Below, in pieces: positions 14,992 through 63,316 of a stretch of DNA of 64,000 nt. The notes beneath the pieces were generated by a model. It did not search any database. It saw nothing but the letters and a program-made list of their open reading frames with translations, and was not told where the DNA came from. Each line of letters opens with the position of its first letter. Within the stretch, counting starts at the first letter, position 1. The stretch lies in the NCBI GenBank assembly GCA_046583365.1, contig JAYGCL010000077.1, positions 3,179 to 67,178 on the forward strand, given 5' to 3'. This stretch comes from Deltaproteobacteria bacterium. Lineage in GTDB: Bacteria > Desulfobacterota > Binatia > UBA1149 > CAYXZP01. Position numbers and translations under genes: made by a program.

Positions 14992-15883
14992 GTCCGCTTG
15001 TCCCTCGTAGCCGTTGAGGGGCAGTCCTGCCAGCCGCCGACAGTACGGTGGTAAAACGCCCCCGACGGGTCCTTACGACCGCCCGGCCGGGGTAGGAAAG
15101 GTCTATCTCTCGTACCCCTGCCAGAGCCCCCTCGTCGAGACTTTCAATAACAACCAGCAAGCGGCCAACGGATTCGTCGGCATCAAATCTGCGGCCAAAG
15201 GAGACCAGCAAGCGGGGAGACTCGGGGAACAGGCGCACAGCGCCGTCTGCGTCCACGTCCACCTGCGAGACCCGCAGTCCACCACGTTCGGCCGCCAGGG
15301 CCACGGCCAGAGCAGTCCTGAGCCTCAACACCCTGGCACCGTGCCCCGCAGCAGGAGTGTCCCACCCGCTCAGATAGGGAAGGTCGGGCCTCGACCGCTC
15401 TTCCCCGCGGTAGACCACCCCGCCGGCGTCAACCGAGTATAAACGGCCAGCGACCACGGTGGCGGCCACGGCCCGGCGCCCGCTGATGGTGACCTCGACC
15501 CGGTCGGGAAAATGCCGGCGTACCGAGGCACGCGAGACCCAGGAGGGGGCGGCAAGAACGGCCTCGGCCGCTTTGACGTCCACATCCCATATGCTTGTGC
15601 CACCGTAGAGGCCGGCCCTGCGGGCCACTTCGGCCGGTGCCAGGGCTGCACCGTCACTGACCACACGGATGGAGCGCAGCTCAAAGTAACCGTGGGAAAC
15701 AAGGGCCGGACGGACATAGGCAAGGGCGACATGGACAATGCCCGCCGCGGCCGACATCACCACGGCAGTCGTAATGGCGCTTTTGAGCCAGCCCCCGGCC
15801 GACCCGCGTAGTCTCCTCAGAAAAGGCCTAAGTCTCATCCCACGCCCCGATAAGCCGTACCTCTGGCTCCAGCCAGACACCAC
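14984..15883 (-). CDS. ftsQ: cell division protein FtsQ
   Basis: Single TM segment plus a POTRA-like region (FELRSIRVVSDG). Lies between murB and ftsA. The true start is probably downstream of 15883 because the ORF overlaps murB by 56 nt. Confidence 0.72.
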   Translation of the reverse strand: MVSGWSQRYGLSGRGMRLRPFLRRLRGSAGGWLKSAITTAVVMSAAAGIVHVALAYVRPALVSHGYFELRSIRVVSDGAALAPAEVARRAGLYGGTSIWDVDVKAAEAVLAAPSWVSRASVRRHFPDRVEVTISGRRAVAATVVAGRLYSVDAGGVVYRGEERSRPDLPYLSGWDTPAAGHGARVLRLRTALAVALAAERGGLRVSQVDVDADGAVRLFPESPRLLVSFGRRFDADESVGRLLVVIESLDEGALAGVREIDLSYPGRAVVRTRRGRFTTVLSAAGRTAPQRLRGTSGRG

Positions 15884-16787
15884 ACTTCTTCCACACCGCC
15901 TCTTGTACTAAACTCATCAGGTCGCGTACTTCACAGGCCCTGGCCCCACCGAGATTTACGATAAAATTCGCGTGCTCGGGTGAAACCTGGGCGTCTCCAA
16001 CGCTCAGACCCTTCAGGCCAGCCCTTTCTATAAGCCGGCCCGCAAACTCGCCATGGGGATTTTTGAAGACGGAACCGGCATTGGGTAAGCCGCCGGGCTG
16101 CTTCGTCTTGCGCTTCGCCTGAACCCTTTCTACAGCCGCCTTCAGTCTCCCCAACGGCGAGCGCACTAGCCTGAACCTGACAGAGATTATCATGACATCG
16201 GCCCCGAGTGCCAATTTACGGTAAGAAAAGGGCAGGCGGGACCGGTCCATATCGACGATTTCGCCGCCGCGGGTGCAGACCTGAACCGCCTCTATGGCGT
16301 CACCGATCTCACCCCCGAAAGCACCAGCATTCATCAGGGTGCCGCCGCCCACCGAACCGGGAATGCCGGCCGCAAACTCAAGCCCGCCAAGCCCCTTTTG
16401 CACACTCTCACGCACCAGACGGGCAAGCCGGACGGCCGCGCCGGCCTCAACCACGACGGCCCCGGCCTCGTCCGCCTGGCCCCAACGGGTGTAGTTGAAA
16501 GCCTTTCCAAACCTCACCACCAGACCCCTGACGCCGCCATCGGCCACCAGCACGTTGGTGCCGCCGCCAAGCATGGTGACGGGGATATCCAGGCGGTCGG
16601 CCTGCTCCAGGGCCCGCGACAGCACCTGGGGGGAAGAGGGCTCAAGGAGCAGGTCGGCAGGGCCACCGATGCGAAAAGACGTATACGAATCCAGCGCGGC
16701 GTCGGTTTTCAGGCCATCGCCGGCAAAGGCCGAAATAAGCGAGCGGGCCTCGTCCAGGCGCCGCGCAACTGGAGTGGTTTCAGACAC
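15828..16787 (-). CDS. murB: UDP-N-acetylenolpyruvoylglucosamine reductase
   Basis: FRIGGPADLLLEP, GGGTNVLV, and the C-terminal MurB domain (NAGSVFKNP...SPEHANFIVN). Confidence 0.93.
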   Translation of the reverse strand: MSETTPVARRLDEARSLISAFAGDGLKTDAALDSYTSFRIGGPADLLLEPSSPQVLSRALEQADRLDIPVTMLGGGTNVLVADGGVRGLVVRFGKAFNYTRWGQADEAGAVVVEAGAAVRLARLVRESVQKGLGGLEFAAGIPGSVGGGTLMNAGAFGGEIGDAIEAVQVCTRGGEIVDMDRSRLPFSYRKLALGADVMIISVRFRLVRSPLGRLKAAVERVQAKRKTKQPGGLPNAGSVFKNPHGEFAGRLIERAGLKGLSVGDAQVSPEHANFIVNLGGARACEVRDLMSLVQEAVWKKCGVWLEPEVRLIGAWDET

Positions 16788-16811
16788 GGCGTAAGGCTGT
16801 CGGCCGTGGGC

Positions 16812-18263
16812 CTAGGAAGCCGCCAGGCGCCGCAGTATCTCCGCCCCCAGCCTGGTTATATCGCCGGCGCCCAGGGTGATCACCACGTCCCCACGGCGGG
16901 CCAGACGGGCGACCTCGGCGGCCAGAGCCGGTCCGGCCTCACGGTAGTGAACGGTACCCGAGTGGCAACGGTCTATGGCCTCGGCCAGAGCCTTCGCTTG
17001 AGCACCCTCGATAGGGGCCTCGCCGGCGGCGTACACATCGGTCACCACCACCTCGTCGGCGTCTGCAAAAGCCCGGCTGAAATCATCAAACAGATCGGCC
17101 GTGCGCGTGTAGCGGTGGGGCTGAAAGACGGCCACAATGCGGCGGCCCAAGCCGATACGGGCAGCGGCCAGGGTGGCCCTTATCTCGGTGGGGTGGTGGC
17201 CGTAGTCGTCAACCACCATCACCCCGCCGCTCTCGCCTTTGACCTCAAAGCGACGCAGGATTCCTTCGAAAGAGGCAAGAGCCCCGGCACAGACCTCAAA
17301 GCTCATGCCAAACTCCAGGCCCACGGCAATGGCGGCCAGGGCGTTGAGTACGGAATGCCGGCCCGGCATCGGCACCGTGGCCCGGCCAAGCCGCCGGCCC
17401 TCTCTTATCACATCGAAGGAGGTCTCAAGGCCTTGCTGTTCCACGTCCACAGCCCTCAGCCCGGCATCAGCCGTGGTCCCGTAGGTTGTGTAGCGCTTCT
17501 TGATCTTGTCGATAATCGAACACACGCGCTCACAGTCGGTCGACAATACGGCACGGCCATAAAAGGGGATGCCGTTGACAAAGGACACGTAAGCATCGGT
17601 GAGGCGCTGCATGGTGCCGTAGTAGTCCATATGCTCACGGTCGATATTGGTGACCACGGCAATGGAGGGCCGCAGGAGAAGGAAACTACCGTCGCTCTCG
17701 TCGGCCTCGGCCACCATGTAAGCCGAACGCCCCAGCCTGGCATTGGTCCCGCCCAGTGATTTCAGCCGCCCGCCGACCACCATGGTGGGATCAAAGCCAC
17801 CGGCAGCCAACACCGAAGAGAGCAGAAAAGTCGTCGTGGTCTTGCCATGGGCGCCGGCCACGGCAACCCCACACTTGGTACGCATCAACTCGGCCAGCAT
17901 CTCGGCCCTGGGAATAACGGGGATATGAAGCTCACGGGCTCTGCCGACCTCGGGGTTGCCATCGCCGATGGCCGAGGAAACGACCACCACATCGATGCCG
18001 CTTTCAACCGCTTCGGCCGCATGGCCGTAGCACAAAACCGCGCCCAATCCGGCCAGGCGGCGGGTGGCCTCACTCTCGTGCAGGTCTGAGCCGCTGACGC
18101 TGTAGCCCAGAGTCAGCAGTACTTCGGCGATGCCGCTCATGCCGATGCCACCAATACCGACCAGATGTATGCGACCGCCGGCCGCCGAAGCTACCTGCCC
18201 GGAGGCGGGGCCACCCAGTTGACTCCAGCCAGGCTGCAACCAGTCTTGGAATTGTTCGGACAT
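16812..18263 (-). CDS. murC: UDP-N-acetylmuramate--L-alanine ligase
   Basis: IHLVGIGGIGMSGIAEVL, VAGAHGKTTTT, DDYGHHPTEI. Confidence 0.95.
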   Translation of the reverse strand: MSEQFQDWLQPGWSQLGGPASGQVASAAGGRIHLVGIGGIGMSGIAEVLLTLGYSVSGSDLHESEATRRLAGLGAVLCYGHAAEAVESGIDVVVVSSAIGDGNPEVGRARELHIPVIPRAEMLAELMRTKCGVAVAGAHGKTTTTFLLSSVLAAGGFDPTMVVGGRLKSLGGTNARLGRSAYMVAEADESDGSFLLLRPSIAVVTNIDREHMDYYGTMQRLTDAYVSFVNGIPFYGRAVLSTDCERVCSIIDKIKKRYTTYGTTADAGLRAVDVEQQGLETSFDVIREGRRLGRATVPMPGRHSVLNALAAIAVGLEFGMSFEVCAGALASFEGILRRFEVKGESGGVMVVDDYGHHPTEIRATLAAARIGLGRRIVAVFQPHRYTRTADLFDDFSRAFADADEVVVTDVYAAGEAPIEGAQAKALAEAIDRCHSGTVHYREAGPALAAEVARLARRGDVVITLGAGDITRLGAEILRRLAAS

Positions 18264-19333
18264 CAGACGTCTTTCACCACCGAGGCCACCACTTCGGCTA
18301 CCCTGGCAACAGCGCCGGGGCGACTTATAGCCGAGGAGGCCCGGACCATGGAGTCTAGCCTGTCGGGGTCGCCGAGCAACCCGGCCAGTTCGCGCTCAAG
18401 GGTCTCGGCCGCTTCCTCATCGTCTTTGACCACCAGGGCGGCGCCGGCCTTGAGCAAGGCTGCAGCGTTATCGCTCTGGTGGGCCGAGGCGGCATGGGGA
18501 TAGGGAAGCAGGATGGCCGGCGTGGCGGTTGCGGTCAGTTCAGCCACGCTGGTTGCCCCCGCCCTGCACACGGCAAGACGGGCACGGCGGTAGGCCGAGG
18601 CCATGTCGTCGATAAAGGCGACCACCTCGGCCTCGACACCGGCATTGCGGTATGCCTCGCCCACCTCCCGACAAGCCGCAGCGCCGGCCTGGTGAAGAAT
18701 ACGGGCGGGCCTGAGTGAGGCCGGCAGGCGACCGAGCGCGGTGGTGACGGCACGGTTCAAGCTTTGGGCCCCGCTGCTGCCGCCAAACACCAGCAGGGTG
18801 TCGCGGGGCCGGTCGGGCCTGAGACCATCGATCTCAGCGCCCACGGGGTTGCCGGTAAACACGGCCTTGCCGGCGGCAAAGTGGGACGCGGTAGCCGCAA
18901 AACTCGTACACACGGCAAAGGCCCCACGGGCGAGAAGACGGTTGGCCAGACCCGGGCTCAGGTTCTGTTCGAGCAATACCACCGGGACCCCACAGCTACG
19001 GGCCGCCACCACAGCCGCGGCCGAAGCGTAGCCGCCCAGGCCCACCACCACATCCACACGCTGGCGGCGGAGCTCGCGCCTGGCGGCAAAAACCGCACGC
19101 GACAGAACGGCCAGCGAGCCGGCCGCGGCCAACGGGTTGCGCCCACGCAGGGGTTCCAGTGGCTGGGCTATCAGCCGGTAACCGGCCGCCGGTACCAGAC
19201 GGGCCTCAATCCCACGCTGGGCGCCGAAGAATACCAGGGACCCGGCAATCCCTCTGTCACGGAGATAGGCGGCCAGCGCCAGTCCGGGAAACAGATGCCC
19301 CCCGGTCCCACCGCCGGCAAGGGCCACTCTCAC
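18263..19333 (-). CDS. murG: undecaprenyldiphospho-muramoylpentapeptide beta-N-acetylglucosaminyltransferase
   Basis: ALAGGGTGGHLFPGLALA N-terminus, GT28 layout. Confidence 0.95.
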   Translation of the reverse strand: MRVALAGGGTGGHLFPGLALAAYLRDRGIAGSLVFFGAQRGIEARLVPAAGYRLIAQPLEPLRGRNPLAAAGSLAVLSRAVFAARRELRRQRVDVVVGLGGYASAAAVVAARSCGVPVVLLEQNLSPGLANRLLARGAFAVCTSFAATASHFAAGKAVFTGNPVGAEIDGLRPDRPRDTLLVFGGSSGAQSLNRAVTTALGRLPASLRPARILHQAGAAACREVGEAYRNAGVEAEVVAFIDDMASAYRRARLAVCRAGATSVAELTATATPAILLPYPHAASAHQSDNAAALLKAGAALVVKDDEEAAETLERELAGLLGDPDRLDSMVRASSAISRPGAVARVAEVVASVVKDV

Positions 19334-20466
19334 CGCTCACGCAACTCCCGCGAAAGCGACATCAGCATACCCACCGCCGCCATGAACACGAGCATGGCCG
19401 AGCCTCCGTAACTCACAAACGGAAGCACCAGGCCCTTGGTAGGCAACAGACCCAACACCACGCCCATGTTGATCAGGGCCTGTAGAGATATGAGCAGGGT
19501 GAGGCCGGCAGCCAGCATCTGTCCGAACATGTCGGGGTGGAGGTGGGCCACACGAAAGCCCCGGTAGGCCAGGGTCGCAAAGCACAAGAGAAGAACCATG
19601 GCACCGATGAAGCCGGCTTCCTCGCCGATCACCGAAAAGACAAAGTCGGTGTGGGCCTCGGGGAGCAGACCGGTTTTCATCTGAGAAGAGCCGAGCCCGG
19701 TGCCGCTCAGTTGGCCGGACCCGAAGGTGTTGTAGGACTGCCGGATCTGATAGCAGGCATCGCCGGGATCTTTGGAGGGATCGATAAAACAGAGCAGCCT
19801 GCTCAAACGGTAGGGGGCATGCCTGACGGCCGCCGCCACGGCTCCGCACATGAGAAGGCCAAGTCCACCCAGTTGCAGAAATGGTACGCCGGCCAGAAAC
19901 ATGAGAACCACACCAAGAATTCCTATGAGAGCTGCAGTGCCGAAATCGGGCTGCAGCAGCAGAACCGAACAAACCACCGCCATCACGACCAGGGTGGGGG
20001 CAATACCGAAGCGCCAGTCGCCGAGTTTGTCACTCTTGCGCGTAAGGGCGGCCGCCAGATAGACGACAAAGACCAGCTTTAAAACCTCGCCGGGCTGCAG
20101 GTTAAGCGGCCCCAGGGAAATCCAGCGGCAGGCCCCTTTGGTACACACCCCGAGGCCCGGCAGCAGCGGCACGACCAGGAGCAGCGCCGCGATGACCAGG
20201 GCCGGCCTTGCCCAGCGCTGTATCAGGTCGGAGCGAACCCGCGACAGCAGCCACATCAGCACGACACCGAGCAGCACCGAAATACCGTGCTTGGTAACCA
20301 TGCGGTAGCTGTCGCCAAAACGGTTCTGGGACAGAAAGTAGGTGGTATCAAGGACCAGCAGCAGACCCGTCAGTACCAACGCAACCGTGATGATCACGAT
20401 CCAGGGGTCGGAGCGGTCGGAAGCGCGCACCCTCAAGCGCGGCGACATCTGTACCTGGCCCTTCAC
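19330..20466 (-). CDS. ftsW: SEDS-family cell division protein FtsW
   Basis: 378-aa polytopic membrane protein (LQPGEVLKL, PEAHTDFVFSVIGEE), in dcw context. Confidence 0.92.
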   Translation of the reverse strand: MKGQVQMSPRLRVRASDRSDPWIVIITVALVLTGLLLVLDTTYFLSQNRFGDSYRMVTKHGISVLLGVVLMWLLSRVRSDLIQRWARPALVIAALLLVVPLLPGLGVCTKGACRWISLGPLNLQPGEVLKLVFVVYLAAALTRKSDKLGDWRFGIAPTLVVMAVVCSVLLLQPDFGTAALIGILGVVLMFLAGVPFLQLGGLGLLMCGAVAAAVRHAPYRLSRLLCFIDPSKDPGDACYQIRQSYNTFGSGQLSGTGLGSSQMKTGLLPEAHTDFVFSVIGEEAGFIGAMVLLLCFATLAYRGFRVAHLHPDMFGQMLAAGLTLLISLQALINMGVVLGLLPTKGLVLPFVSYGGSAMLVFMAAVGMLMSLSRELRER

Positions 20467-21896
20467 CCCCTTACCTCCTCCACCAATTCGACAAAGCGCC
20501 GGCCCCGTTCGGCATAGCCGTCAAACTCATCCCAACTCGCGCAGGCAGGCGCCAGCAGAACCACGTCGCCCGTCGAAGCCGCGTCCAGGGCGCGCCGGAA
20601 AGCGTCGTCGAAACAGTCGGCCTCGCGCACCGTGGTACGACCGGCCAGAACCTCGCGCAACTCCCGCCGGGCCTGTCCAAAAACGACGGCGGCCTTAATC
20701 TTACACGCAGAGGCGGCCAGCGGCCAGAGGTCCGCGCCTTTGGCCGTCCCGCCGAGCAGAACGACGACCGGGCGGTCGAAAGCCTCAAGACTGCTGAGTG
20801 TGGCCGCAACGTTGGTGGCTTTGGAGTCATTCCAGAACTCAACACCCCCGGCTTCGGCCACCAACTGCAGACGGTGGTTGAGGGGTTTGAAGCGGGCCGC
20901 GGCTCTTTCGACCGGGCCCGCGCTCACCCCTTCGCCTCTGGCCACCTCGGCCGCTGCGGCCAGGTTGGCCAGCGTGTGGGGGACGGAAAAAGCCTCGCCC
21001 TTGATGGTAGCCTTCCAGCCCTCGCCGTCGCTGAGCGTCATGCCGGCCCGGTCGGCCAACATTCCCCGGCAGCCGGGGTCGAGAGGGGAAAAGCCGAAAG
21101 AACTGAGTGCTGCCGGGCTGCAGGCACGGGCCTGGCGATAGCAGTCCCCGTCCCTGCCGACCACTGCCCGGGCCCCGGCGTCCAGGTTGGCCAGCAGGCC
21201 GAGCTTTACGGCGGCATAGGCCTCGGGGCCGCCGTGACGGTCGGCATGGTCGTCGCCGATGTTTAAGAGTAGGGCCGTAGCCGGCCTGAAACCGCGGGCC
21301 CACTCGAGCTGGAAACTGGACACCTCGACAACAAAGTAATCGACCTCAGCCCCAACGCCGTCGCTCAGGGGAGGGCCGAGGTTTCCCCCGCTGAAGACCC
21401 GGTAGCCGGCCTCTTCAAGAATCATCGCCAGCAAGGTTACCGTGGTGCTTTTCCCGTTGGTGCCGGTAACGGCCAGAACCGGTCCGTCAACCATGGCGGC
21501 GGCAAACTCTATCTCGGAGACTACTTTCACCCCGGCCGCCTGGGCCCTTTGCAGGAGAGGGTGGGAAGAGGGCACACCCGGGCTCGGAATGACCAGGGTG
21601 GCCGAATCCACGCATCCCGCAGCGTCCCCGGCCATCAACGGCTCCGCGACCGCAGCCAGTTGTCGGTCGGTGCGCAAGTCACGATGGTCGTCGACCACCC
21701 GAGCCCGCGCGCCCAGGCGGGAGACCAGGCGGGCAGCGGCCATGCCGGTTTCACCCGCGCCAAGGATGACAACCCGGCCCAGGTCAAAGCGTGCTCCACC
21801 CACTCTTTTCAACGCAGCTTGAGAGTGACCAGGGTCGCCAGCGCACAGATCACCGAAATGATCCAGCAACGCACAATGATCAACGGTTCGGGCCAC
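20463..21896 (-). CDS. murD: UDP-N-acetylmuramoylalanine--D-glutamate ligase
   Basis: [26 protein letters not shown]. The track start overlaps mraY by 88 nt, so a GTG near 21803 is a plausible true start. Confidence 0.92.
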
Positions 21897-22885
21897 CCCT
21901 TCAGTTCAAAGTGGTGGTGTATTGGTGCCATGCGGAAGATTCGTTTGCCGCGGAGTTTTATAGAAGCCACCTGCAGGATCACCGACATGGCTTCGGCCAC
22001 AAAAACGCCCCCGGCCAGAATCAACACGATTTCGTTTTTCGAGATTACCGCAACCATCCCGATACCCCCGCCGAGGGCCAGTGAGCCCACGTCGCCCTGG
22101 AAAATGTGGGCCGGATAGGTATTCCACCACAAGAACCCGAGCCCGGCCGCCGCCATGGCCGCACAGATGATCGCCAGCTCCCCGGCCCCCGGCACAGGCG
22201 GGATAAAAAGGTAGGCCGACAGCTTGGCGTGTCCCGCACAGTAGGCCAGCAGGGCATAGGTAGCCGAGGTGGTCATCACCGGACCTATGGCCAGACCGTC
22301 GAGACCATCGGTCAGGTTCACGGCATTTGAGGTTCCAACGATGACGAGTACGGCAAAAGGAATGTAGAAAAGCCCCAGGTCGGGGTGGAGGTCTTTGAAG
22401 AACGGCACCGACAGGGTCGCGTCAAAGCCCCCACGGGTACACAGGATGGTGGCTGCTATGCCGGCTATGAGAACCTGCCCGAGGAGCTTTACACGGGCCG
22501 GAAGTCCAGCGTTGCGACCCTCTTTGATCTTGAGGTAGTCGTCCAGGGCGCCCAGGGCCCCAAAGCCGGTGATGACTGCGAAAGTCAGCCACACGTAGAC
22601 GTTGGTCAAGTCGGACAGCAGGAAAGACGGCAGCAGCAGCGAAAAGAGGATGAGCACACCACCCATGGTCGGGGTACCCTCTTTTGAGGCATGACCATCG
22701 GGGACATACTTGCTCACCGGCTGGCCGATGTGACCGGCCTTCATCACCCGTATCAGCCGGGGCCCGAAAAGGAAGGAAACCAGCAAAGCCAACAGTGCGG
22801 CCGCCAGGGCACGGAAACTCAGATAGCGGACTACGTTTAAGACCGCGTAATCGGAGGCCAGTGGCGACAAGAGGTTGTATATCAT
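21809..22885 (-). CDS. mraY: phospho-N-acetylmuramoyl-pentapeptide transferase
   Basis: [26 protein letters not shown]...[13 protein letters not shown]...[11 protein letters not shown]. The start is taken at the Met at 22885, overlapping the murF stop. Confidence 0.95.
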
Positions 22886-24294
22886 CGCAGCGCCTCCTCT
22901 TTTAAAAGTTCCACCACTCTCTCCATGCCTGCCCCCCGCGAGCCCTTTACCAGAACCGTATCGCCACGTTTCCACAAGGCAGCCACGGCGTTGGCGGCAC
23001 CCGAGTGGTCACTTACAACGGCCACCGAGTCCTCGGACAGACCGGCCTCGAGGGCACCGCCACACAGGTCCCGGGCATGCGGCCCCATGGCACACAGCAA
23101 CACGGGCTGCAAAGAGGCGGCGGCCCGCCCCGCACGAGCGTGCCAGAGGGCAGCGTCGTCTCCAAGTTCGAGCATATCGCCGAGCACAAGCAGACAACGC
23201 CCCCCGGGCCTGTCACCAATGGTCTCGATGGCGGCCTGAAGGGAAGCGGGGTTGGCGTTGTAGGCGTCGTTTACGATTATCACTCCATTGCCGAGTACTT
23301 CTACGGCCAGGCGCATGGGCACGGCCGGGGCCTTTGCCAGTCCACGGGCCACGGCCGCCAGCGGCACTCCCAACTCCAGCGCCACAGCGGCCGCACCCAG
23401 GGCGTTACCCACATTGTGACGGCCTCCGGTGGCAAGCACCACTTTTGTCTTCTCCTGTTCGTGGACAAGCTCGAATGCCACATGCCTGAGGTCTCCACTT
23501 TCTATGTTCTCGGCCCTGACCGACCCTTGCAGTCCGAAAAAAACTTTGCGGCCGGAAAATCTGGCCGACTGTGCGAGAACGTGCTCGTCGTCGCGGTTGA
23601 CCACGGCCGTAGCATTGGCCGGCAGACCGGCGAAAAGCTCGCCCTTGGCTTGTGCCACCCCCTCCAGCGAACCGAGGCCCTCAAGATGGGCCGGCGCCAC
23701 ACAGGTCACCAGGCCATGGGTGGGCGCGGCAATCTCCACCAGACGGGCAATCTCACCGGGTGCGTTCATACCCATCTCCAGGATGGCTGCGCGGTGCCGG
23801 CCGTCTACCTTCAAAAGGCTCAGCGGCATGCCCACCAGGTTATTGAAATTTCCCTGGTTGGCCGAGACGCGACCGCTCCCGTAGGCCTCCTCGAGAACGG
23901 ACTTGAGCATTTCCTTGCTTGTGGTTTTGCCGTTGGAGCCGGTTATGGCCACGACCGGTCCCGCAAAACTACGCCTGTGCCGGGCGGCAATGGCGCCCAG
24001 GGCCGCCAGCGTATCGGTGACCTCGACAAAGACCACGCCGCGGCGCTCAAGAGAGCGCCCCTGCCCACAGACCACCACGGTGGCACCGCGAGAGACGGCA
24101 TCGTCAATGAAGTCGTTGCCGTCGTAACTCTCTCCCTTGAGCCCCACAAACACGTCTCCCGGACTCGTGGTACGGCTATCGGTAACAACCTGGCCCACAA
24201 GCGCGGCACCTGCGGCCACCCCGGCGGCCGGGACACCGCCACTGGCCTCGATGAGTTCGGCAACCGTCACCCGGCCTCCGCCAGGCGCCGACAC
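22882..24294 (-). CDS. murF: UDP-N-acetylmuramoyl-tripeptide--D-alanyl-D-alanine ligase
   Basis: [21 protein letters not shown]. Lies between murE and mraY. Confidence 0.93.
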
Positions 24295-25808
24295 AAGTCA
24301 CGCTCGTTGAAGGGAATCCTGAGCCCGCCTACCTCCTGGTAATCTTCGTGCCCCTTGCCGGCCACCAGCACCAGGTCGCCGACCGCGGCTATCTCAAGTG
24401 CCAGGGCTATGGCACTGCGGCGGTCCGGCTCGAGCGTGTAACCACCCGAGCGGCCACTCCCGAAAATCTCAAGTGCAGCGTCCATATCCACCTTGTCCAT
24501 GGCCACCATGCCGGTCTCTATGGCGGCAATTATGTCGGCCGGCTCCTCGCCCCGAGGATTGTCGGAGGTCACAACGGCGACATCGGCAAGGCCGGCAACC
24601 ACGCTGCCCATTTGCATCCTTTTGCCGCGGTCGCGGTCCCCCCCACAACCAAAGACAACGATCACACGGCCCGCAGGGTTAAGTTCGCGCAGACTTTCCA
24701 AGCTGCAGGCCAGAGCGTCGGGGGTATGGGCGTAGTCGACCACCACCAGAGGCCCGCGCGCCGAGACCACCTCCATACGCCCCGGCACGCCGACGCAGGC
24801 CCCGATACCGCGGGCAATGGCCGTATCCTCTATGCCGATAGCACAAGCCGTGGTCGCAGCGGCCAGAATGTTGGCGAGGTTGGTACGCCCCAACAGCGAG
24901 GTCTCGATGTCGAGTCCGCGGCCGTCAAGTTCCAACCGGGCCCTGGTCCCGCGCATTGAACAACTGGCCGCCAGCACACGGGCTCTGCCCTCACCCCCGG
25001 GCTCTGTCGAGTAGGTCCACAGGTCCCGGCCCCGGCAATGGTCTTTGAGGTCGTCGGCCCGCGGGTCGTCGTTGTTTATAATCGCCACCCCGCCGACGGC
25101 AAGATAATCGCTGAACAACGAGGCCTTGGCCGCAAAGTAGCTCTCCTGGTCACCGTGGTAGTCGAGGTGGTCGCGGCTTAAATTGGTGAACACCGCCGCA
25201 TCGAAGCTGCAGCCGGCCACGCGGCTCTGGCTCAGAGCGTGGGAGGAGACTTCCATGGCCACCGCCCGACAGCCGGCCTGCTGCATTTCATCCAGAATGG
25301 CGTGCAGGTCAACGGCCGCCGGAGTAGTCATGGGGGAGGGTCTCTCAAAGGCCGCACAGCGGGTACTTACCGTGCCGATAAGACCCGGGCTTTGTCCCGC
25401 CGCGCTGAGAATACTCTCCAGAATACAAGCCGTGGTGCTTTTTCCATTCGTGCCGGTAACGGCCAACATGGTCATCCGCTTCGACGGTTGGCCATAAAAG
25501 GCCGAGGCCACCACCCCGCAGGCCTTGTGTACATCGCCAACCGCTATGGCCGGGATGTCGACGTCCAGCGCGGCGGCCGCCGAGTCGCTACACAGCACCG
25601 CTGCTGCGCCGGCGGCCAGGGCTTGTTCAATGAAGCCGGAGCCGTCGGTACGGGTGCCCGCAAGTGCAACAAAGAGGTCGCCGGGGTCGAGGCTACGCGA
25701 GTCGCAGGACAGCCCGGTTATCACCGTGGCTGCTGAGGCCGAAGCGGCCATGCCGGCCTCAGCCAACGCGTCCACAAGTGAGGTCAGCGAAGATTTACGG
25801 CCCACCAC
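24267..25808 (-). CDS. murE: UDP-N-acetylmuramoyl-L-alanyl-D-glutamate--2,6-diaminopimelate ligase
   Basis: [33 protein letters not shown] motif. Confidence 0.95.
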   Translation of the reverse strand: MVGRKSSLTSLVDALAEAGMAASASAATVITGLSCDSRSLDPGDLFVALAGTRTDGSGFIEQALAAGAAAVLCSDSAAAALDVDIPAIAVGDVHKACGVVASAFYGQPSKRMTMLAVTGTNGKSTTACILESILSAAGQSPGLIGTVSTRCAAFERPSPMTTPAAVDLHAILDEMQQAGCRAVAMEVSSHALSQSRVAGCSFDAAVFTNLSRDHLDYHGDQESYFAAKASLFSDYLAVGGVAIINNDDPRADDLKDHCRGRDLWTYSTEPGGEGRARVLAASCSMRGTRARLELDGRGLDIETSLLGRTNLANILAAATTACAIGIEDTAIARGIGACVGVPGRMEVVSARGPLVVVDYAHTPDALACSLESLRELNPAGRVIVVFGCGGDRDRGKRMQMGSVVAGLADVAVVTSDNPRGEEPADIIAAIETGMVAMDKVDMDAALEIFGSGRSGGYTLEPDRRSAIALALEIAAVGDLVLVAGKGHEDYQEVGGLRIPFNERDLCRRLAEAG

Positions 25809-25817
25809 CGGCCAAGG

Positions 25818-27788
25818 TTAGGGCAAGCCCCCGACGGCCGCCAACTCAAGGGAAACAGCCTGGTCATCATCCAGCTTAACACCCGGGGCCGGCACCTGGC
25901 CTACCACGTAGCCCTGCCCCTGCACCTCGATGTTGCAGTTACAACCGTCCATGGCTCTCATCGCCGAACGCAGCGCCAGGCCATCGAGGTCTGGCATATG
26001 CCCAAGGCTGGTGGCCACCCTGTCTGTCGGCGGCCGGGGTTGGGGTACAACCACTTTCAAGGGCGGGGCCGCCAACGGCTCGGGCAAGCCGTCGGGGCGG
26101 CGGGGAATCTGCAGGTATCCCACAGCCATGTCGGCTATGCGGCGGAAAACCGGGCCGGCAACAACACCGCCGTAGTGACTGCCCTGCGGCTCATCGATAA
26201 CCACAGCGATTACCAGGCGTGGGTCGTCGGCCGGCAAGAAGCCAACGAAAGATGCAACCCAACGGTCTTTGCTGTAGCCCCCCCTTTCATGCTTCTGGGC
26301 GGTACCGGTCTTGCCGGCCACCCTCACCCCGGCCACCTGTGCCTGCGGTGCCGTGCCCGAAGCACTGACCACGTCTTCGAGCATCCGTGACACCAGGGCA
26401 GCGACCTGCGGGCTCACCGCCCGGCCCACCCGTTCGGGTCCGGTTACCTCGAGCAGACCCTGGTCGTCGGAACGGATTTCACTGACGACGTAAGGACGCA
26501 TCCTCACGCCGCCGTTGGCAAGGGTGGCATAGGCCGAGGCCAGCTGCAGTACGGTGGTCGACATCCCCTGGCCGAAACTTATATTGGCAAGGTGGATATC
26601 CCCCCACTTCGAGGCCGGGTGCAGCAGACCACCGACTTCCCCAAGGAGCCCGGAAGAGGTGGTGGAACCGAAACCGAAACCCCTCAGAACAGAATATACC
26701 GCGTCAACCCCGGCCTCGGCACCGATTTTGGCCATACATATGTTGCTCGAAACCTTTATTATCTCGGGCACCGAGAGTTCCCCGTACTCGTGGTGGTCGT
26801 GGATGGTCCATTTGCCGATATCCATGTTGCCGTTCTCACAGAAAAACCTGTCGCGCTCGCTCACCGCACCGCTTTGCAAGGCGGCGGCCAGGATAAAAGG
26901 TTTGAGCGTGGAGCCCGGCTCGAAACGGTCGGTAACGGCACGGTTGCGACGGGCCCCGACCGCATAACGACCGTACTGGTTGGGATCAAAATCCGGCACG
27001 TTGGCCAGGGCCAGGATTTCTCCGCTGCGGGGGTCCATGACCACTACCGAGCCGGCAATCGCCCCGGTGGCTCTTACCTGGGCGGCCAGTTCGGAAGCGG
27101 CCAGGCCCTGGATGGTGGCGTCGAGAGTGAGTTTGAGAGAGGCGCCACGATTAGCCCCACGAAGGTCGGCGTCGTTTAAGTAGCTGTTTCCACGACCGTT
27201 ACTGCACACTCGCACTTCGACCTCTTTGCCACTAATTTTTTCGTCCAGGGACTTTTCCAATCCCTCAAGGCCGTTGGCATCGATACCCGAAAAACCGAGT
27301 ACGTGGGCGGCCAGGGGGCCGGACGGGTACCGCCGGGCCTGCCTCGGCAGGACGTCTATGCCCGGTATACGAAGGCGTTTAACCTCGTTGGCCTCGTCAA
27401 AACCGACTCTACGCGACAGCCACAGGTAGTTGCTCCCCGGGTTTTGAAGGCGTTTGGACAGGACAACTGGTTCCACACCCAACAGAGGGGAAAGGATTTC
27501 CACATGGGCGGGGTCGAAGGTGTAGCGAACCCTCACGACGGCCACCTGCGAGGCCCTCACGCTGGTGGCCAGGGTGCTGCCGTAGCGGTCTCTTATCTGA
27601 CCACGGTAGGACATCTTTACCGTCGTTGCGCAGGTCTGGTAGCTAACGGCCAGGGCCTTCTCCGCACCGACAACAATGCTGAGATAGTAACTGCGAACGC
27701 ACACCGACGACGCTGCCAATACGCAGACCGCGGCGACCACGGCCAGGCGGCGACTGAACCTGTTACGGCTGAGATTTCCCCGGCGCAT
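25818..27788 (-). CDS. ftsI: penicillin-binding protein 3 (FtsI-type transpeptidase)
   Basis: 656 aa with a TM anchor, STLKP (SxxK), SSN and KTGTA motifs. Confidence 0.93.
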   Translation of the reverse strand: MRRGNLSRNRFSRRLAVVAAVCVLAASSVCVRSYYLSIVVGAEKALAVSYQTCATTVKMSYRGQIRDRYGSTLATSVRASQVAVVRVRYTFDPAHVEILSPLLGVEPVVLSKRLQNPGSNYLWLSRRVGFDEANEVKRLRIPGIDVLPRQARRYPSGPLAAHVLGFSGIDANGLEGLEKSLDEKISGKEVEVRVCSNGRGNSYLNDADLRGANRGASLKLTLDATIQGLAASELAAQVRATGAIAGSVVVMDPRSGEILALANVPDFDPNQYGRYAVGARRNRAVTDRFEPGSTLKPFILAAALQSGAVSERDRFFCENGNMDIGKWTIHDHHEYGELSVPEIIKVSSNICMAKIGAEAGVDAVYSVLRGFGFGSTTSSGLLGEVGGLLHPASKWGDIHLANISFGQGMSTTVLQLASAYATLANGGVRMRPYVVSEIRSDDQGLLEVTGPERVGRAVSPQVAALVSRMLEDVVSASGTAPQAQVAGVRVAGKTGTAQKHERGGYSKDRWVASFVGFLPADDPRLVIAVVIDEPQGSHYGGVVAGPVFRRIADMAVGYLQIPRRPDGLPEPLAAPPLKVVVPQPRPPTDRVATSLGHMPDLDGLALRSAMRAMDGCNCNIEVQGQGYVVGQVPAPGVKLDDDQAVSLELAAVGGLP

Positions 27789-28119
27789 TGACTGCTATTA
27801 CCTGTCCTGCCAACGGCGCCCGCAGGCGCTGGGCCGTGGCCCGGCGGCGCAGAAGCTCCGGGGCTTCCTGGCGACCGGCGATGATTTCCAGTTCTTCGTG
27901 TTCGTGGTCGAGGTCGTCAATAATCGTAGCCGTCATACTAATTTTGTGGCCCAGGTCCTGGACACTGAGGCGTATCCATACATTGGCCACCGCCAGCAGA
28001 GCTACGACCACGACCAGCATGGCCACACGGCGTTCGAATCGAGCCTCGGCAGGATCGGAAACCCCCAGACGCAGCCAGGCGGCTACCCAGCCATGCGTTG
28101 TCCTGCCCCGACCCGCCAC
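27763..28119 (-). CDS. ftsL: FtsL-like cell division protein
   Basis: Small bitopic protein (TM segment MLVVVVALLAVANVWI plus a short coiled segment) in the canonical slot between rsmH and ftsI. The call rests on position and topology only. Confidence 0.55.
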   Translation of the reverse strand: MAGRGRTTHGWVAAWLRLGVSDPAEARFERRVAMLVVVVALLAVANVWIRLSVQDLGHKISMTATIIDDLDHEHEELEIIAGRQEAPELLRRRATAQRLRAPLAGQVIAVNAPGKSQP

Positions 28120-28128
28120 CAGACTTCC

Positions 28129-29070
28129 TCAGGCGGCCAGGCGCTCTACGACGCGCAAGCCGGCGCTTCGTGACCTGGGGTTGGCTTCGACTTCCGCACG
28201 CGAAGGTCTGAGTTTTTTTCTGGTCACCACCTTGACCCTGGCCTGCCAGCCACAGTTACAAACGACCCGGATGGGAGGACAAATACAGTCGGAAGCAAGA
28301 CGCCTGAACGCCCGTTTGACGATACGGTCTTCCAGAGAGTGGTAGCTGAGCACCGCCATGCGCCCGCCCGGGGCCAGAGCCCGCCAGGCCCCCTCCACCA
28401 GCGTTTCCAATTCGCTGAGTTCTTCGTTCACGGCGATACGAAAAGCCTGAAAGGTACGCGTGGCCGGGTCGTGGCCGGGCCTGCCCTTAAGCCCCGCAGC
28501 CAGTACCGCACGGCGAAGGTCGCTGGTGGTAAGCAGGGGTGCCTGGGCGCGCAGGGCCACAATCGAACGGGCTATACGCCGCGACGCTCTCTCCTCACCA
28601 TAGCGATATATGAGGTCGGCAAGCTCGCCCTCAGTCAGACTGCCGGCCAGATCGGCGGCGGTGGCCTCGAGACTGAGATCCATGCGCATGTCCAGGGGTC
28701 CCTCAGTCGCAAAGCTGAAGCCCCTTTGTGGCCGTCGCAGTTGCAGCGAAGAAAGCCCAAGGTCGGCCACAATGCCGTCGACCCGTTGCCAACCACACTC
28801 CTCAAGGGTCTGTTCGAGACGGGAGTAACTCGTGCGCACCAGGGTGGCGCGAGAGCCGAAGCGCTCAAGGTAACGGGCGGAAGATTCCAGGGCCTCGCCG
28901 TCCCGGTCCATACCCAACAACAGGCCGGAGGGGGCGGAAACCTCGAGCAGGCGTTCGGCCATTGCGCCCTCACCAACGGTTGCATCTACGTAGCGCCCAC
29001 CCGTTCTCACTTGCAGGACCTCCACGACTTCTTCGAGCATCACGGGAATGTGACGCCCACCGCCGTCCAT
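28129..29070 (-). CDS. rsmH: 16S rRNA (cytosine1402-N4)-methyltransferase
   Basis: HIPVMLEEVVEVL, DATVGEGAMAE, DLGLSSLQL, SYHSLEDRIVK. Confidence 0.95.
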   Translation of the reverse strand: MDGGGRHIPVMLEEVVEVLQVRTGGRYVDATVGEGAMAERLLEVSAPSGLLLGMDRDGEALESSARYLERFGSRATLVRTSYSRLEQTLEECGWQRVDGIVADLGLSSLQLRRPQRGFSFATEGPLDMRMDLSLEATAADLAGSLTEGELADLIYRYGEERASRRIARSIVALRAQAPLLTTSDLRRAVLAAGLKGRPGHDPATRTFQAFRIAVNEELSELETLVEGAWRALAPGGRMAVLSYHSLEDRIVKRAFRRLASDCICPPIRVVCNCGWQARVKVVTRKKLRPSRAEVEANPRSRSAGLRVVERLAA

Positions 29071-29072
29071 AA

Positions 29073-29540
29073 TCAGAGCCGCAGTCCCTTAAGGGACTTG
29101 ATCCTGGCTTTGTTACGTTCGGCGTTCTCTTTGAAGCGTTTCCACTCTTCGACCGACCAGAGCCTGAACTTACGGATATCGCCGGTGTAGACGCACTCAC
29201 GGACCAAGCCCGCGTGGTCGCGGTGGTTGGCGGGCAGGAGAATGCGGCCCTGACGGTCGAGAATCTGTTCCTGGGCCGGGTGGATGTAGTTGGACAGCAG
29301 CACGTCGAGGACTTCCGAGGCATCCTCGCCGTCTTCTACCGTCGACAGATTGAGAATCTCCTGAGCAACCTTCTCCCACTCGGTCAGCGGGTATATATCG
29401 ACGTAAGAAAAGTCCGGTTTCGGGGAAAGGGTAACCACCACCCGTCCCTGGTTGGCACCCCCGAGGGCACCGCGGAACTTGTGAGGAACTGCTACGCGGC
29501 CTTTGTCGTCTATCGCGTGAAAGTAGGTTCCGAGAAACAT
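29073..29540 (-). CDS. mraZ: transcriptional regulator MraZ
   Basis: MFLGTYFHAIDDKGRVAVPHKFR and a second SpoVT/AbrB-like repeat (LDRQGRILLP). Confidence 0.95.
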   Translation of the reverse strand: MFLGTYFHAIDDKGRVAVPHKFRGALGGANQGRVVVTLSPKPDFSYVDIYPLTEWEKVAQEILNLSTVEDGEDASEVLDVLLSNYIHPAQEQILDRQGRILLPANHRDHAGLVRECVYTGDIRKFRLWSVEEWKRFKENAERNKARIKSLKGLRL

Positions 29541-29849: not shown

Positions 29850-30215
29850 GTGTGCGAGTCGGCCTCTAAGCCGGATTCTGTCCCCCAGGACGAGCCTGGG
29901 ACGGCAGCCATTCATCTGGGCCGACAGTTGCCCGCCGACTCTTGCGACCTTGACCCGGGGACTTGGGGCGGGCCACCCGTCCCCCTATTCGGTCTTGCTC
30001 CAGGTGGGGTTTACATAGCACCGGCCGTTACCGGCCAGCCTGGTGAGCTCTTACCTCACCGTTTCACCCTTACCCGGCGTCAAGACGCCGGGCGGTCTAC
30101 TTTCTGTTGCACTTTCCCCGCCTCACAGCGGGCCGCCGTTAGCGGCCACCCTGCCCTATGGAGTCCGGACTTTCCTCTCGCACAAAGTACGAGCGACTAC
30201 CCGACCGACTCGCAA
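29850..30215 (-). ncRNA. rnpB: RNase P RNA, bacterial type A
   Basis: The minus strand contains GAGGAAAGUCCGGACUCCAUAGGGCAGGGUG, GUAAGGGUGAAACGGUG, ACAGAAUCCGGCUUA and a P1 pairing GCGAGUCGGUC/GGCCGACUCGC. It is collinear with E. coli M1 RNA. Ends are approximate to within about 5 nt. Confidence 0.9.
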
Positions 30216-50409: not shown

Positions 50410-50747
50410 CCAAGAACCGAAAGGTAGACCTCGGCGTTAAAGCCCACCAGTACGGTCTTGCCCACCTTGAGGCAGGGGGCTCGCAGGTTGCCGGTGGGGC
50501 CGAGCAGAGAATCCACCACCGCAGCCGGGGCCTTGCCCGCGGGTTTGAACTCTTCGACCTTCTTACCTTTGGCCACGATTACCCGGCTTGCCGCACGTAC
50601 CAGTGCGGCGGCTTCCTTGCGGCCCAGCTTTCTGGAGGCCGGGACGGTCTCGCGCGGCTGCAGGCCTTTGTCGTCCAGAAACCTGGACGATCGCGTACAC
50701 GAAGTTCAACCGTTGCGGTGGTAGTACCAGTCGGGGATCTTAGACAT
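50406..50747 (-). CDS. ArsC/Spx-family thioredoxin-fold protein with in-frame UGA (probable selenocysteine, UxxC motif)
   Basis: Manual translation gives MSKIPDWYYHRNG-[TGA 50708..50706]-TSCTRSSRFLDDKGL...[28 protein letters not shown], 113 codons in a single frame, with AAGGTG upstream. Absent from the ORF track because of the TGA. Confidence 0.7.
50671..50690 (-). promoter_or_regulatory. SECIS-like hairpin
   Basis: UCGUCCAG-GUUU-CUGGACGA is a perfect 8-bp stem that begins 15 nt after the UGA. Confidence 0.55.
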
Positions 50748-61024: not shown

Positions 61025-62113
61025 TCAGGCGGCCTGGGTGCCGGCCCCAATCTTGTCCAGGAGTTCCACCAACTCGGCAGGAGCTTCTATGTCGGCGTCC
61101 TCGGTCGAATCCTTGAGGTTTTCGAACTGCAGAATACCGATCTTTTCGTACTCCTTGCGCACACGGTCGGTAAGCAGGCCCAGGCGTTTTAAGTTCGGCA
61201 CAATCTTAGAGAACAGCATCTGCCTGAAGCCAACCATGAACGGGGTCTGCTTGGCCCACTCGGTCCACACCTTGACGTCGAAGTCCATACGCTCATAGAC
61301 CTGCTCCATGAGCAGACGGTCACGCATGAGATAGGTAGCCTCAATCACAAAATCTTCGCGTTCTTTCAGCTCGGAACTGCTCAGTTCGTGGGTATAGATA
61401 TGTTCGAGCGAAAGCACACCGAAGGCCACGTGGCGGGCCTCGTCCTGCATTATACGGTGAGTGATGTCCTGGATGAGAGGTTCGTCGGCGAGTTCCATCT
61501 TCATTATGCCAAAGGCCGCAAGGGCCAGGCCCTCGACCATTATCTGCATGCCAAGGTAGGTCATGTCCCAACGCGAGTCGGTCACAATCTGGTTGAGCAA
61601 GGTCTGCAGGTGAGGGTTGATCTCGAAAGAACGGCCTAGCTTTTCGGTGAGGTAGCGGTGGTAGACCTCGACGTGGCGAGCCTCATCGGCCGTCTGGTTG
61701 GCGGCATAAAACTTAGCCTCTTCGGTAGGCGCCGCCATGGCTATTTTAGCACTGGCCACCAGTGCCCCCTGTTCTCCGTGCAGAAACTGCGAGAGCATCC
61801 AGGCCGTCATATTCACGTCGAACTCGATTGCCTGTTTGGCGTCCATCGGGTGGGGCGGGTCGAGAAGTTGGTTTACCATCTCGTGGGTGCCCCTGCTGGT
61901 GTTCCTGGCCGCCCGCCCTTCGATGTCCACATTGATGCTCCAGTCCAGGTCAGAGGCGTTCCAGGTGGCCGTCTTGCCCTTTTCATACAGGGTGAGGAGC
62001 TTGGACTGCTTAAGCGCGTACTCCCAGTCAAAGGTGGTATCGAAGGCACAGGGCACCGCCTCGGTGGAGCCCACCGCGGGCAGGGGAAGGGGATTCTTCT
62101 GTTCGTAATCCAT
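61025..62113 (-). CDS. ferritin-like diiron oxygenase (AurF-like fold)
   Basis: Two ExxH motifs (ADEARHVEVYH and QDEARHVAFG) plus additional Glu residues in a four-helix pattern. The start is taken at Met 62113 (MDYEQKN). Confidence 0.62.
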   Translation of the reverse strand: MDYEQKNPLPLPAVGSTEAVPCAFDTTFDWEYALKQSKLLTLYEKGKTATWNASDLDWSINVDIEGRAARNTSRGTHEMVNQLLDPPHPMDAKQAIEFDVNMTAWMLSQFLHGEQGALVASAKIAMAAPTEEAKFYAANQTADEARHVEVYHRYLTEKLGRSFEINPHLQTLLNQIVTDSRWDMTYLGMQIMVEGLALAAFGIMKMELADEPLIQDITHRIMQDEARHVAFGVLSLEHIYTHELSSSELKEREDFVIEATYLMRDRLLMEQVYERMDFDVKVWTEWAKQTPFMVGFRQMLFSKIVPNLKRLGLLTDRVRKEYEKIGILQFENLKDSTEDADIEAPAELVELLDKIGAGTQAA

Positions 62114-62236
62114 CTTGGGAGGGTGCCCGCCAGTCCCCGCTATGGCAAGAGATGGGGCCAACGGCCGGGCCGACCATCGGCAGAGCCCCGGCCGGCCGTT
62201 GCCAAAGCCCGGCCGCCGGTACATACATCGCACACG

Positions 62237-62848
62237 ATGATAACCCTTTACGGCAGTGCCCAGAACCGTGGAAGCCGCTGCATCCTGGTGCTCGAAGAGT
62301 GCGGGCTGGACTACCAGATAAAGCCCATCGACATAGACAACGGCGCCCAGAACGACCCCGCCTACCGCGCCATCAACCCCAACGGCAAGGTGCCCTGCCT
62401 TGACGATGACGGCTTTGTGGTCTGGGAATCGATGGCCGTTAACCTCTACCTGGCCGGCAAGTACGGCAATGGCCTGATACCCGAGGATACCCAGGCCAGG
62501 GCCAAGGTGTTGCAGTGGTCATTCTGGGCGATGACAGAACTCGAGGCGGCCGTGCTGTCTGTATTCACCCACCGCGTGCAGCTTCCCGAAGAGGACAGGC
62601 GGCCCGAGATTGCCCAACAGGGCATGGACAAAACCGCCGTGCTGCTGGCCGTCCTGGACGGCGAGCTTGAGGGCAACGACTACCTCATCGACAATGGTTT
62701 TACGGTTGCCGACCTCAATGTGGCCCACGTTGTTATCTGGGCTACGCTGCTTGGAGTCTCGATTGAGAAATACAAAAACGTAGGCCGCTGGTTTGCCTCG
62801 ATACAAGAGCGACCCAGTTTTCAGAAATTGATGGACATGCGCTCTTAG
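62237..62848 (+). CDS. glutathione S-transferase
   Basis: MITLYGSAQNRGSRCILVLEECGLDYQ...NPNGKVPCLDDDGFVVWESMAVNLYL. The track ORF (from 61658) is an artefactual upstream extension. Confidence 0.88.
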   Translation: MITLYGSAQNRGSRCILVLEECGLDYQIKPIDIDNGAQNDPAYRAINPNGKVPCLDDDGFVVWESMAVNLYLAGKYGNGLIPEDTQARAKVLQWSFWAMTELEAAVLSVFTHRVQLPEEDRRPEIAQQGMDKTAVLLAVLDGELEGNDYLIDNGFTVADLNVAHVVIWATLLGVSIEKYKNVGRWFASIQERPSFQKLMDMRS

Positions 62849-62878
62849 CATTGTCAGTTTTTTTGGAGGAGAAAATAT

Positions 62879-63316
62879 ATGCTTAATGTAGGAGACACGG
62901 CGCCCGACTTTGAAGTTGCCGCCCACGACGGCAGCACGGTTAAACTATCGGCCCTGCAGGGGAAGAAAGTCATCCTGTGGTTCTACCCCAAGGCCGACAC
63001 CCCCGGTTGAACTGTCCAGGGTAACGGGTTCCGTGACCAAATAGACAAGTTCGAAGAGAAAAATGTCGAAGTGCTGGGAATCAGTTTCGACAGTGTGGAA
63101 GAGAACAAGGCCTTTGCCCAAAAGTTTGACTACCCGTTCCGGCTCTTGAGCGATGGCGACCGCGCCGTCGGCATGGCCTATGGAGCCTGCGACTCAACCG
63201 AGGCAGGCTACGCCAACCGTATAACCTACCTCATTGACGAGAACGGAACGGTGGCCCATGCCATGGCCGAGGTAAATCCCCAGACCCAGAGCGAAGACCT
63301 GCTGGCACTGGTATAG
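62879..63316 (+). CDS. Bcp-type peroxiredoxin with in-frame UGA at the peroxidatic position (probable selenocysteine)
   Basis: ATG 62879 with GGAGGA 8 nt upstream. The translation MLNVGDTAPDFEV...VILWFYPKADTPG-[TGA 63008..63010]-TVQGNGFRDQIDKFEEKNVEVLGISFDS... aligns with E. coli Bcp FYPKAMTPGCTVQACGLRD. The ORF track shows only the part after the TGA (63071..63316). Confidence 0.75.
63020..63038 (+). promoter_or_regulatory. SECIS-like hairpin
   Basis: GGUAACGG-GUU-CCGUGACC is an 8-bp stem with one A-G mismatch. The loop starts 20 nt after the U of the UGA. Confidence 0.45.

Follow-up and report, generated by a model that had tools for sequence, protein, structure and literature searches.

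The gene at positions 62879..63316 of the window, the whole 64-kb stretch of DNA analysed here, is very probably a single functional peroxiredoxin gene of the Bcp/PrxQ subfamily in which the in-frame UGA at 63008..63010 is decoded as selenocysteine (Sec), to judge from its sequence and from that of its relatives. This interpretation had been proposed in an earlier, sequence-only reading of the DNA, and it is supported by alignment with homologous proteins, by the alternation of TGA with TGC or TGT at this codon among relatives, and by a conserved and covarying hairpin downstream of the UGA. The gene has escaped annotation and belongs to a well-known selenoprotein family, recognised since about 2004.

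An Intact Reading Frame Split by an In-Frame UGA

From the ATG at 62879 the frame extends to a TAG at 63314..63316 and contains a lone in-frame TGA, giving the read-through product MLNVGDTAPDFEVAAHDGSTVKLSALQGKKVILWFYPKADTPG-U-TVQGNGFRDQIDKFEEKNVEVLGISFDS... (Table 1). The Shine-Dalgarno motif and start codon described in the sequence-only reading are found where it placed them, as is the 81-residue tail from an internal GTG, at 63071, which it took to be the only part of the gene in the mechanical ORF list; a 43-residue head (62879..63010) is listed too, and nothing else. Its expectation that annotation would miss the gene is borne out by the public gene calls, which in all three assemblies of the same species (L201, L202 and L203) consist of a 43-residue and an 81-residue ORF. 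In these assemblies, both of the called fragments match AhpC-TSA/Redoxin.

Table 1. Coordinates of the features discussed in the text, in window positions.
Feature	Position	Strand	Details and evidence
Shine-Dalgarno-like GGAGGA	62865..62870	+	8 nt ahead of ATG 62879; read from sequence
Bcp/PrxQ-type peroxiredoxin CDS, 145 residues, with Sec44, TAG included	62879..63316	+	Translation, Pfam, NCBIfam, PDB, pN/pS
UGA as probable selenocysteine, peroxidatic residue	63008..63010	+	Cys column of homologues; TGA conserved in relatives
Active-site motif P37-K-A-D-T41-P-G-U44 (PxxxTxxU)	62987..63010	+	P37 and T41 invariant in 176 Sec and 9 Cys forms
Cys104 (TGC, in YGACD), sole cysteine of the protein	63188..63190	+	Possible resolving residue; putative role
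Arg114, conserved catalytic Arg of peroxiredoxins	63218..63220	+	Invariant in 185 aligned family members
SECIS-like hairpin core	63020..63038	+	5' arm 63020..63027 GGUAACGG, loop 63028..63030 GUU, 3' arm 63031..63038 CCGUGACC
Predicted extended stem-loop, lower helix including the UGA	63008..63053	+	MFE -15.6 kcal/mol; prediction only
Glutathione S-transferase gene, GST_N and GST_C domains	62237..62848	+	Ends 30 nt before the peroxiredoxin start
ArsC-family selenoprotein gene, 113 residues	50406..50747	-	TGA 50708..50706; NF041106

Selection on the frame was assessed against the closest relative, L121, which shares 69% identity with the window protein and likewise has TGA at this codon. The pN/pS ratio is 0.20 for the part preceding the TGA, 0.30 for the TGA-to-GTG interval, and 0.38 beyond the GTG. 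As the ratio remains below 0.4 in all three segments, purifying selection acts on the whole frame, and also on the stretch that a split gene would leave non-coding. Taken at face value, the ORF list and the public gene calls match a pair of alternative products, namely a 43-residue peptide that ends at the TGA or an 81-residue C-terminal fragment that begins at GTG 63071. However, the thioredoxin fold and the active site would be incomplete in both fragments, with Sec44 and Arg114 falling on different fragments, and no Shine-Dalgarno motif was noted ahead of the GTG. Furthermore, two separate products would leave the TGA-to-GTG interval without a coding function, yet this interval retains 70% protein identity to L121 in addition to its low pN/pS. 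Separate products of this kind are scarcely credible.

The UGA Lies at the Position of the Peroxidatic Cysteine

Domain searches were run on the product with a cysteine placed at the TGA. The Pfam domain AhpC-TSA (PF00578) is matched with an E-value of 5.7e-37, residues 4-127 covering profile positions 1-123 of 124 in a match that runs across the TGA. The best NCBIfam model is NF006960 (Bcp-type thiol peroxidase; 116.9 bits), followed by the PrxQ model NF053650, and the AhpC, Tpx and PrxU models score far below these two. Since the score does not reach the equivalog cut-off of NF006960 (140 bits), the protein is assigned as a member of the family and not as an equivalog or orthologue-level match to E. 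coli Bcp. The top PDB matches are also Bcp/PrxQ structures (3drn, 5enu, 2ywn and 5iiz). A protein database contains 3,831 homologues at E <= 1e-10, of which the best are 145 residues long and 55-66% identical to the window protein. There the clade is represented by Cys forms alone, because gene callers truncate the Sec forms.

E. coli K-12 Bcp (NC_000913) aligns with the product over 133 residues, of which 42% are identical (E 7e-34), and its FYPKAMTPGCTVQACGLRD lies opposite FYPKADTPG[TGA]TVQGNGFRD. This alignment identifies the TGA with the position of the peroxidatic cysteine, in agreement with the earlier proposal. The TGA column is occupied by Cys in 18 of 18 aligned Cys homologues, among which P37, T41 and R114 are invariant, and in a broader set of 185 relatives (176 Sec and 9 Cys forms) the columns of P37, T41, U/C44 and R114 are all invariant. 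The same proposal held that the resolving cysteine of Bcp is missing, and indeed Asn49 faces the resolving Cys of the E. coli protein (+5), while Ser91 replaces the Cys that the clade has in its LLCD motif.

Conservation of the UGA among Relatives

In species-representative genomes, one for each species, at least 120 loci match a degenerate DNA pattern for PKADTPG-TGA-T, for which the calculated chance expectation is about one match in 1.2e12 positions. At 111 loci or more, an open frame of approximately 43 codons, counted from Met, precedes the TGA and approximately 100 codons follow it, with strong conservation on both sides. The hosts listed for the TGA form belong to Acidobacteriota, Binatia, Rokubacteria, Gemmatimonadota, Myxococcota and Planctomycetota, and further to Alpha- and Gammaproteobacteria, SAR324 and others. 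Two of the loci, L077 and L086, resemble chance pattern matches. Four TGA homologues (L033, L119, L087 and L092) stop or shift frame soon after the TGA and could be pseudogenes or assembly indels; in L033, on a Binatia chromosome, just nine codons lie beyond the TGA.

In a protein-guided scan of metagenome contigs, the best 80 relatives were kept, and 75 of these bear the motif. Codon 44 is TGA in 66 of the 75 and TGC or TGT in the other nine. Thus, the comparison of close relatives that had been suggested as a check on the sequence-only reading yields alternation between Sec and Cys codons, with the Sec codon predominating among the nearest. A frameshifted or truncated bcp in relatives had been named there as evidence to the contrary; what is found are intact frames in at least 111 genomes and truncation at a few of the listed loci. 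Closer still to the window, contigs from three further samples, which share 99.2-100% nucleotide identity with it, encode exactly the same 81-residue tail. Each of these independent assemblies of the same organism carries the TGA, and the three differences within the gene, at codons 8, 42 and 106 and hence on both sides of the TGA, are all synonymous.

These data bear directly on the possibility that a cysteine codon, TGC or TGT, has been turned into a nonsense TGA by mutation or sequencing error and that the gene is dead. A single base change would be enough for such a conversion, the gene callers do see two fragments, and a few of the at least 120 genome loci (L033, L087 and L119) are truncated or frameshifted. 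However, the TGA is shared by three independent assemblies that differ synonymously only, it is found with intact frames in 111 genomes or more as well as in 66 of the 75 nearest motif-bearing relatives, purifying selection acts on both of its sides, and a conserved, covarying hairpin follows it. We consider a pseudogene or an error to be effectively refuted, with a next to negligible probability.

A SECIS-Like Hairpin Downstream of the UGA

Bacterial SECIS elements have been recognised by a stem-loop right after the UGA with a small apical loop that contains a G (PMC1088965), a description that the window hairpin, with its GUU loop at 63028..63030, matches. The imperfect hairpin had been pointed out in the sequence-only reading and is confirmed at 63020..63038: it begins nine nucleotides past the UGA, forms seven of eight possible pairs with one A.G mismatch, and is built from the codons of G48-N49-G50-F51-R52-D53. 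When compared with shuffled sequences, its folding has a z-score of -2.0 for 63 nucleotides (5 of 200 shuffles being as good) and of -0.76 in a 71-nucleotide frame. As the window sequence alone is only weakly better than chance, the significance of the hairpin derives from the comparative data.

Across the Sec forms (170 unique sequences), the register of the downstream hairpin relative to the UGA is fixed, and 134 of them have GUU as the loop. About half are of the window type, in which an 8-bp stem pairs +13..+20 with +24..+31 around a loop at +21..+23. About a quarter have an overlapping alternative, GGGUUC-CGUGAUC-GAAUCC, with a 7-nucleotide loop, and most of the remainder have the same GUU loop on a stem shifted by one base. 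Two partly overlapping hairpin designs, spanning +13..+37 from the UGA, are therefore found in one gene family, and some sequences can form both.

Covariation was counted in an ungapped alignment of 135 Sec forms, with one sequence at one base pair taken as a cell. The window-type helix is paired in 85.8% of cells, compared with 80.0% in column shuffles, and none of 500 shuffles reaches the observed value; if the 3' partner is slid by one to three columns, at most 54.8% of cells are paired. Double-sided changes are present in 61 cells. The covarying pair is formed by the second base of codon 49 and the wobble base of the Arg52 codon (GC 57, AU 30, CG 22, GU 12), such that UGC at codon 49 occurs with CGC at codon 52, UCC with CGG, and AAC with CGU. 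In the window, this pair is A-U (63024 with 63034).

Part of the pairing potential of the hairpin stems from the conserved GxGFRD codons, and some Cys forms share it. Sec forms fold with a mean energy of -12.6 kcal/mol, versus -8.4 kcal/mol for 17 Cys forms of the same clade (Mann-Whitney p 2.5e-5, with sequences counted without phylogenetic correction), and the loop-forming GGG codon for Gly50 is used by 72% of Sec forms versus 35% of Cys forms. At least seven of the eight hairpin pairs are present in 7 of the 17 Cys forms. Three loci with TGC or TGT, L137, L204 (identical to P0001) and L207, keep seven or eight of the eight SECIS-type pairs, and P0001/L204 scarcely differs from the Sec form L098; such hairpin-keeping Cys forms may be recent Sec-to-Cys conversions that carry a relic SECIS. 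Neither the TGA nor the TGY pattern was found in viral contigs, and hence viruses provide no control sequences.

A covariance search for a SECIS had also been suggested as a check. The hairpin is conserved and covaries across the Sec forms; no SECIS family of Rfam is matched, either at gathering thresholds over the whole window or at E-values up to 10 in 62950..63120. Evidently, the Rfam SECIS models do not cover the window hairpin.

A Second Selenoprotein Gene and the Genomic Context

A motif screen (C/U within three residues) revealed a further TGA-interrupted gene in the window, on the minus strand. This gene is probably the first of the recoded genes counted in the sequence-only reading, where the peroxiredoxin gene is the second. 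Its product, MSKIPDWYYHRNG-U-TSC..., contains a UxxC motif and matches the full profile of NCBIfam NF041106, 'ArsC family (seleno)protein', with 109.8 bits against a cut-off of 85; a Pfam search of this gene returned no match. An 8-bp hairpin, UCGUCCAG-GUUU-CUGGACGA, at 50690..50671, starts 15 nucleotides after the UGA. The gene is independent, indirect support for the use of Sec in this organism. Screens of the window based on GC3 and on codon-position composition for more genes of this kind were too noisy.

The machinery for Sec insertion was sought as well, the presence of its genes in the genome having been proposed as a check. None of selA, selB, selC and selD was found in the 64-kb window, which says little for such a fraction of a genome. 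ARAGORN detected tRNA-Met and tRNA-Phe in the window and no tRNA-Sec, the machinery was likewise not found in a 4-kb extension of the left end of the window, and 1.19 Mb of flanks of related loci contained no tRNA-Sec; selA, selB and selD were not found in these flanks either. Ten ORFs similar in size to Sec machinery were identified as rpoD, dnaG, an amidohydrolase, a radical SAM protein, a porin, a VWA protein, rmuC, a DegT aminotransferase, a release factor and an ArsA-like ATPase, and were rejected.

With no Sec machinery seen in the window, the UGA might be read without selenium, either by near-cognate insertion of Trp or Cys or because UGA has been reassigned. Yet TGA is an ordinary stop in the window, where it terminates many genes, among them rpoD and rmuC, whose full length is confirmed by Pfam, and UGA is therefore not reassigned. 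In addition, a Trp at the peroxidatic position would be inactive, leaky reading has no need of a conserved SECIS-like hairpin at a fixed distance, and the family is a documented selenoprotein family (PMC1088965). Selenium-free readthrough is thus extremely unlikely.

As the search for the machinery covered the 64-kb window, its 4-kb extension and flanks of related loci, the Sec trait might also have been lost recently in this lineage, leaving the peroxiredoxin and ArsC-like genes intact but no longer expressed at full length, and a passage of PMC1794560 describes the loss of Sec use as frequent in bacterial evolution. However, two different selenoprotein genes are intact here, both with hairpins, and the strain-level variation is synonymous only, although so small a set of observations would still be compatible with a very recent loss. 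We regard such a loss as very unlikely, and decoding of the UGA as selenocysteine as the preferred reading.

The window also holds a dcw cluster (mraZ, rsmH, ftsI and mur genes; 13771..29540, minus strand) and an RNase P RNA of class A (29851..30212, minus strand), and its other genes include those for tRNA-Met and tRNA-Phe, rpoD, dnaG, a prfA-like gene and murA. The best named relatives of MurA come from assembled genomes of Candidatus Binatia or 'Deltaproteobacteria', at 68-71% identity, and members of the same 90%-identity protein clusters come from mesopelagic samples of TARA station 85. The organism probably lives in the marine mesopelagic and belongs, or is related, to Candidatus Binatia.

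Proposed Mechanism and the Resolving Residue

By the established bacterial mechanism, SelB with Sec-tRNA(Sec) would bind the hairpin at 63020..63038 during translation, and Sec would be inserted at the UGA in place of chain termination. Within the PxxxTxxU pocket, Sec44, together with Thr41 and Arg114, would constitute the peroxidatic residue, and would attack H2O2 or an organic hydroperoxide to give a selenenic acid. Since the window protein lacks both the +5 Cys and the LLCD Cys, its recycling would most likely proceed through direct attack by an external thiol reductant, whether thioredoxin, glutaredoxin or glutathione, in a 1-Cys-type mechanism. Less likely, a Se-S bond might form between Sec44 and Cys104.

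The sequence-only reading had proposed a 1-Sec enzyme. The absence of the +5 and LLCD cysteines agrees with this proposal, but Cys104 of the YGACD motif is present; on these residues, a 1-Sec enzyme is plausible, if unproven. No candidate resolving cysteine is conserved across the 176 Sec forms, with C49 found in 34% (59/176), C91 in 55% and C104 in 36% (64/176), and a quarter of the Sec forms have none of the three. Cys104 is present in 8 of 9 Cys forms. As the SECIS is built from the GxGFRD codons, the residue at the classical resolving-Cys position may not be free of the RNA structure: in this 145-residue PrxQ clade, the +5 residue appears to co-evolve with the wobble base of Arg52.

The short distance of 30 nucleotides to the glutathione S-transferase (GST) gene upstream means that GST and peroxiredoxin may be co-transcribed. 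Directly upstream of these two genes, on the opposite strand, is an ORF (61025..62233, minus strand; 402 residues listed, 362 scanned) with weak, sub-threshold matches to DUF455 and to AurF-type di-iron oxygenases. The GST gene adjoins the peroxiredoxin gene in the three same-species contigs only and in none of the approximately 200 other related loci. A conserved functional link between GST and peroxiredoxin was accordingly rejected as lacking comparative support, and with the adjacency confined to the species, a glutathione/GST recycling route is speculation. A more far-reaching proposal would combine three elements: a clade in which Sec prevails and is probably ancestral, in mostly aerobic soil and marine phyla; a +5 residue coupled to the SECIS; and a window protein that acts as a 1-Sec peroxidase recycled by glutathione and GST. 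Taken as a whole, this proposal is unlikely. Human Prdx6 with GST-pi is the analogue for a 1-Sec peroxidase recycled in this manner.

Significance and Comparison with Known Systems

ORFs split at TGA hide the Sec forms of this family, even though these are the majority among the best 80 relatives at the DNA level. Once the annotation is corrected, a poorly known marine, Binatia-like lineage gains a peroxide defence that depends on selenium, along with a second selenoprotein, and the organism can be expected to need selenium. General knowledge of selenoproteins is unchanged, and the value of the correction is mainly practical, for annotation, with the dual coding of SECIS and resolving-Cys position as a minor additional point.

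The SECIS of E. coli fdhF is the model bacterial SECIS, a hairpin that lies within the coding sequence, a few nucleotides past the UGA, and has a G and a U in its apical loop. The element in the window differs from it in sequence and in stem length, has a GUU triloop, and shows an A.G mismatch where the fdhF element has its bulged U. With respect to the protein, E. coli Bcp (b2480), a thioredoxin-dependent thiol peroxidase of the atypical 2-Cys PrxQ type, shares the active-site block of the window protein at the 42% identity given above, but its peroxidatic and +5 resolving positions are each occupied by Cys, where the window has Sec and Asn. PrxU of Eubacterium acidaminophilum, which a passage of PMC13188914 citing Sohling et al. 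2001 presents as a biochemically characterised Sec-peroxiredoxin, is likewise a peroxiredoxin with a UGA-encoded peroxidatic Sec. However, PrxU (NF040737) belongs to a different peroxiredoxin subfamily with a longer profile of 233 positions, against which the window protein scores 64.6 bits where the cut-off is 270.

The closest counterparts are the Sec-containing peroxiredoxins (Sec-Prx) of the COG1225/Bcp type with a TxxU motif. By abundance, these ranked second among the selenoprotein families in the Sargasso Sea, with 43 genes (PMC1088965), and 253 of their genes were found in the GOS data (PMC2398784); Bcp-type Sec-Prx ranks among the most abundant selenoproteins of oxic ocean metagenomes (PMC1088965, PMC2398784). 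The remark in the sequence-only reading that Sec-containing peroxiredoxins are known in some anaerobes is therefore right in treating the family as not new, but understates its distribution. Sec-Prx is established in current catalogues of bacterial selenoproteins (PMC9312934, PMC13188914), one of which names the PxxxTxxU motif (PMC13188914), and ArsC-type selenoproteins with UxxC are also catalogued. Compared by catalogue description, the Sec-Prx of these catalogues (pfam00578, TxxU; reference WP_011365628.1) and the window protein have the same domain, the PxxxTxxU motif and the putative peroxidatic Sec in common, and they likewise share a stem-loop right after the UGA with a small, G-bearing loop, as well as a marine setting. 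Nothing essential differs between them: the window copy comes from a Binatia-like mesopelagic MAG, and it lacks the cysteines at +5 and in LLCD, which many family members possess.
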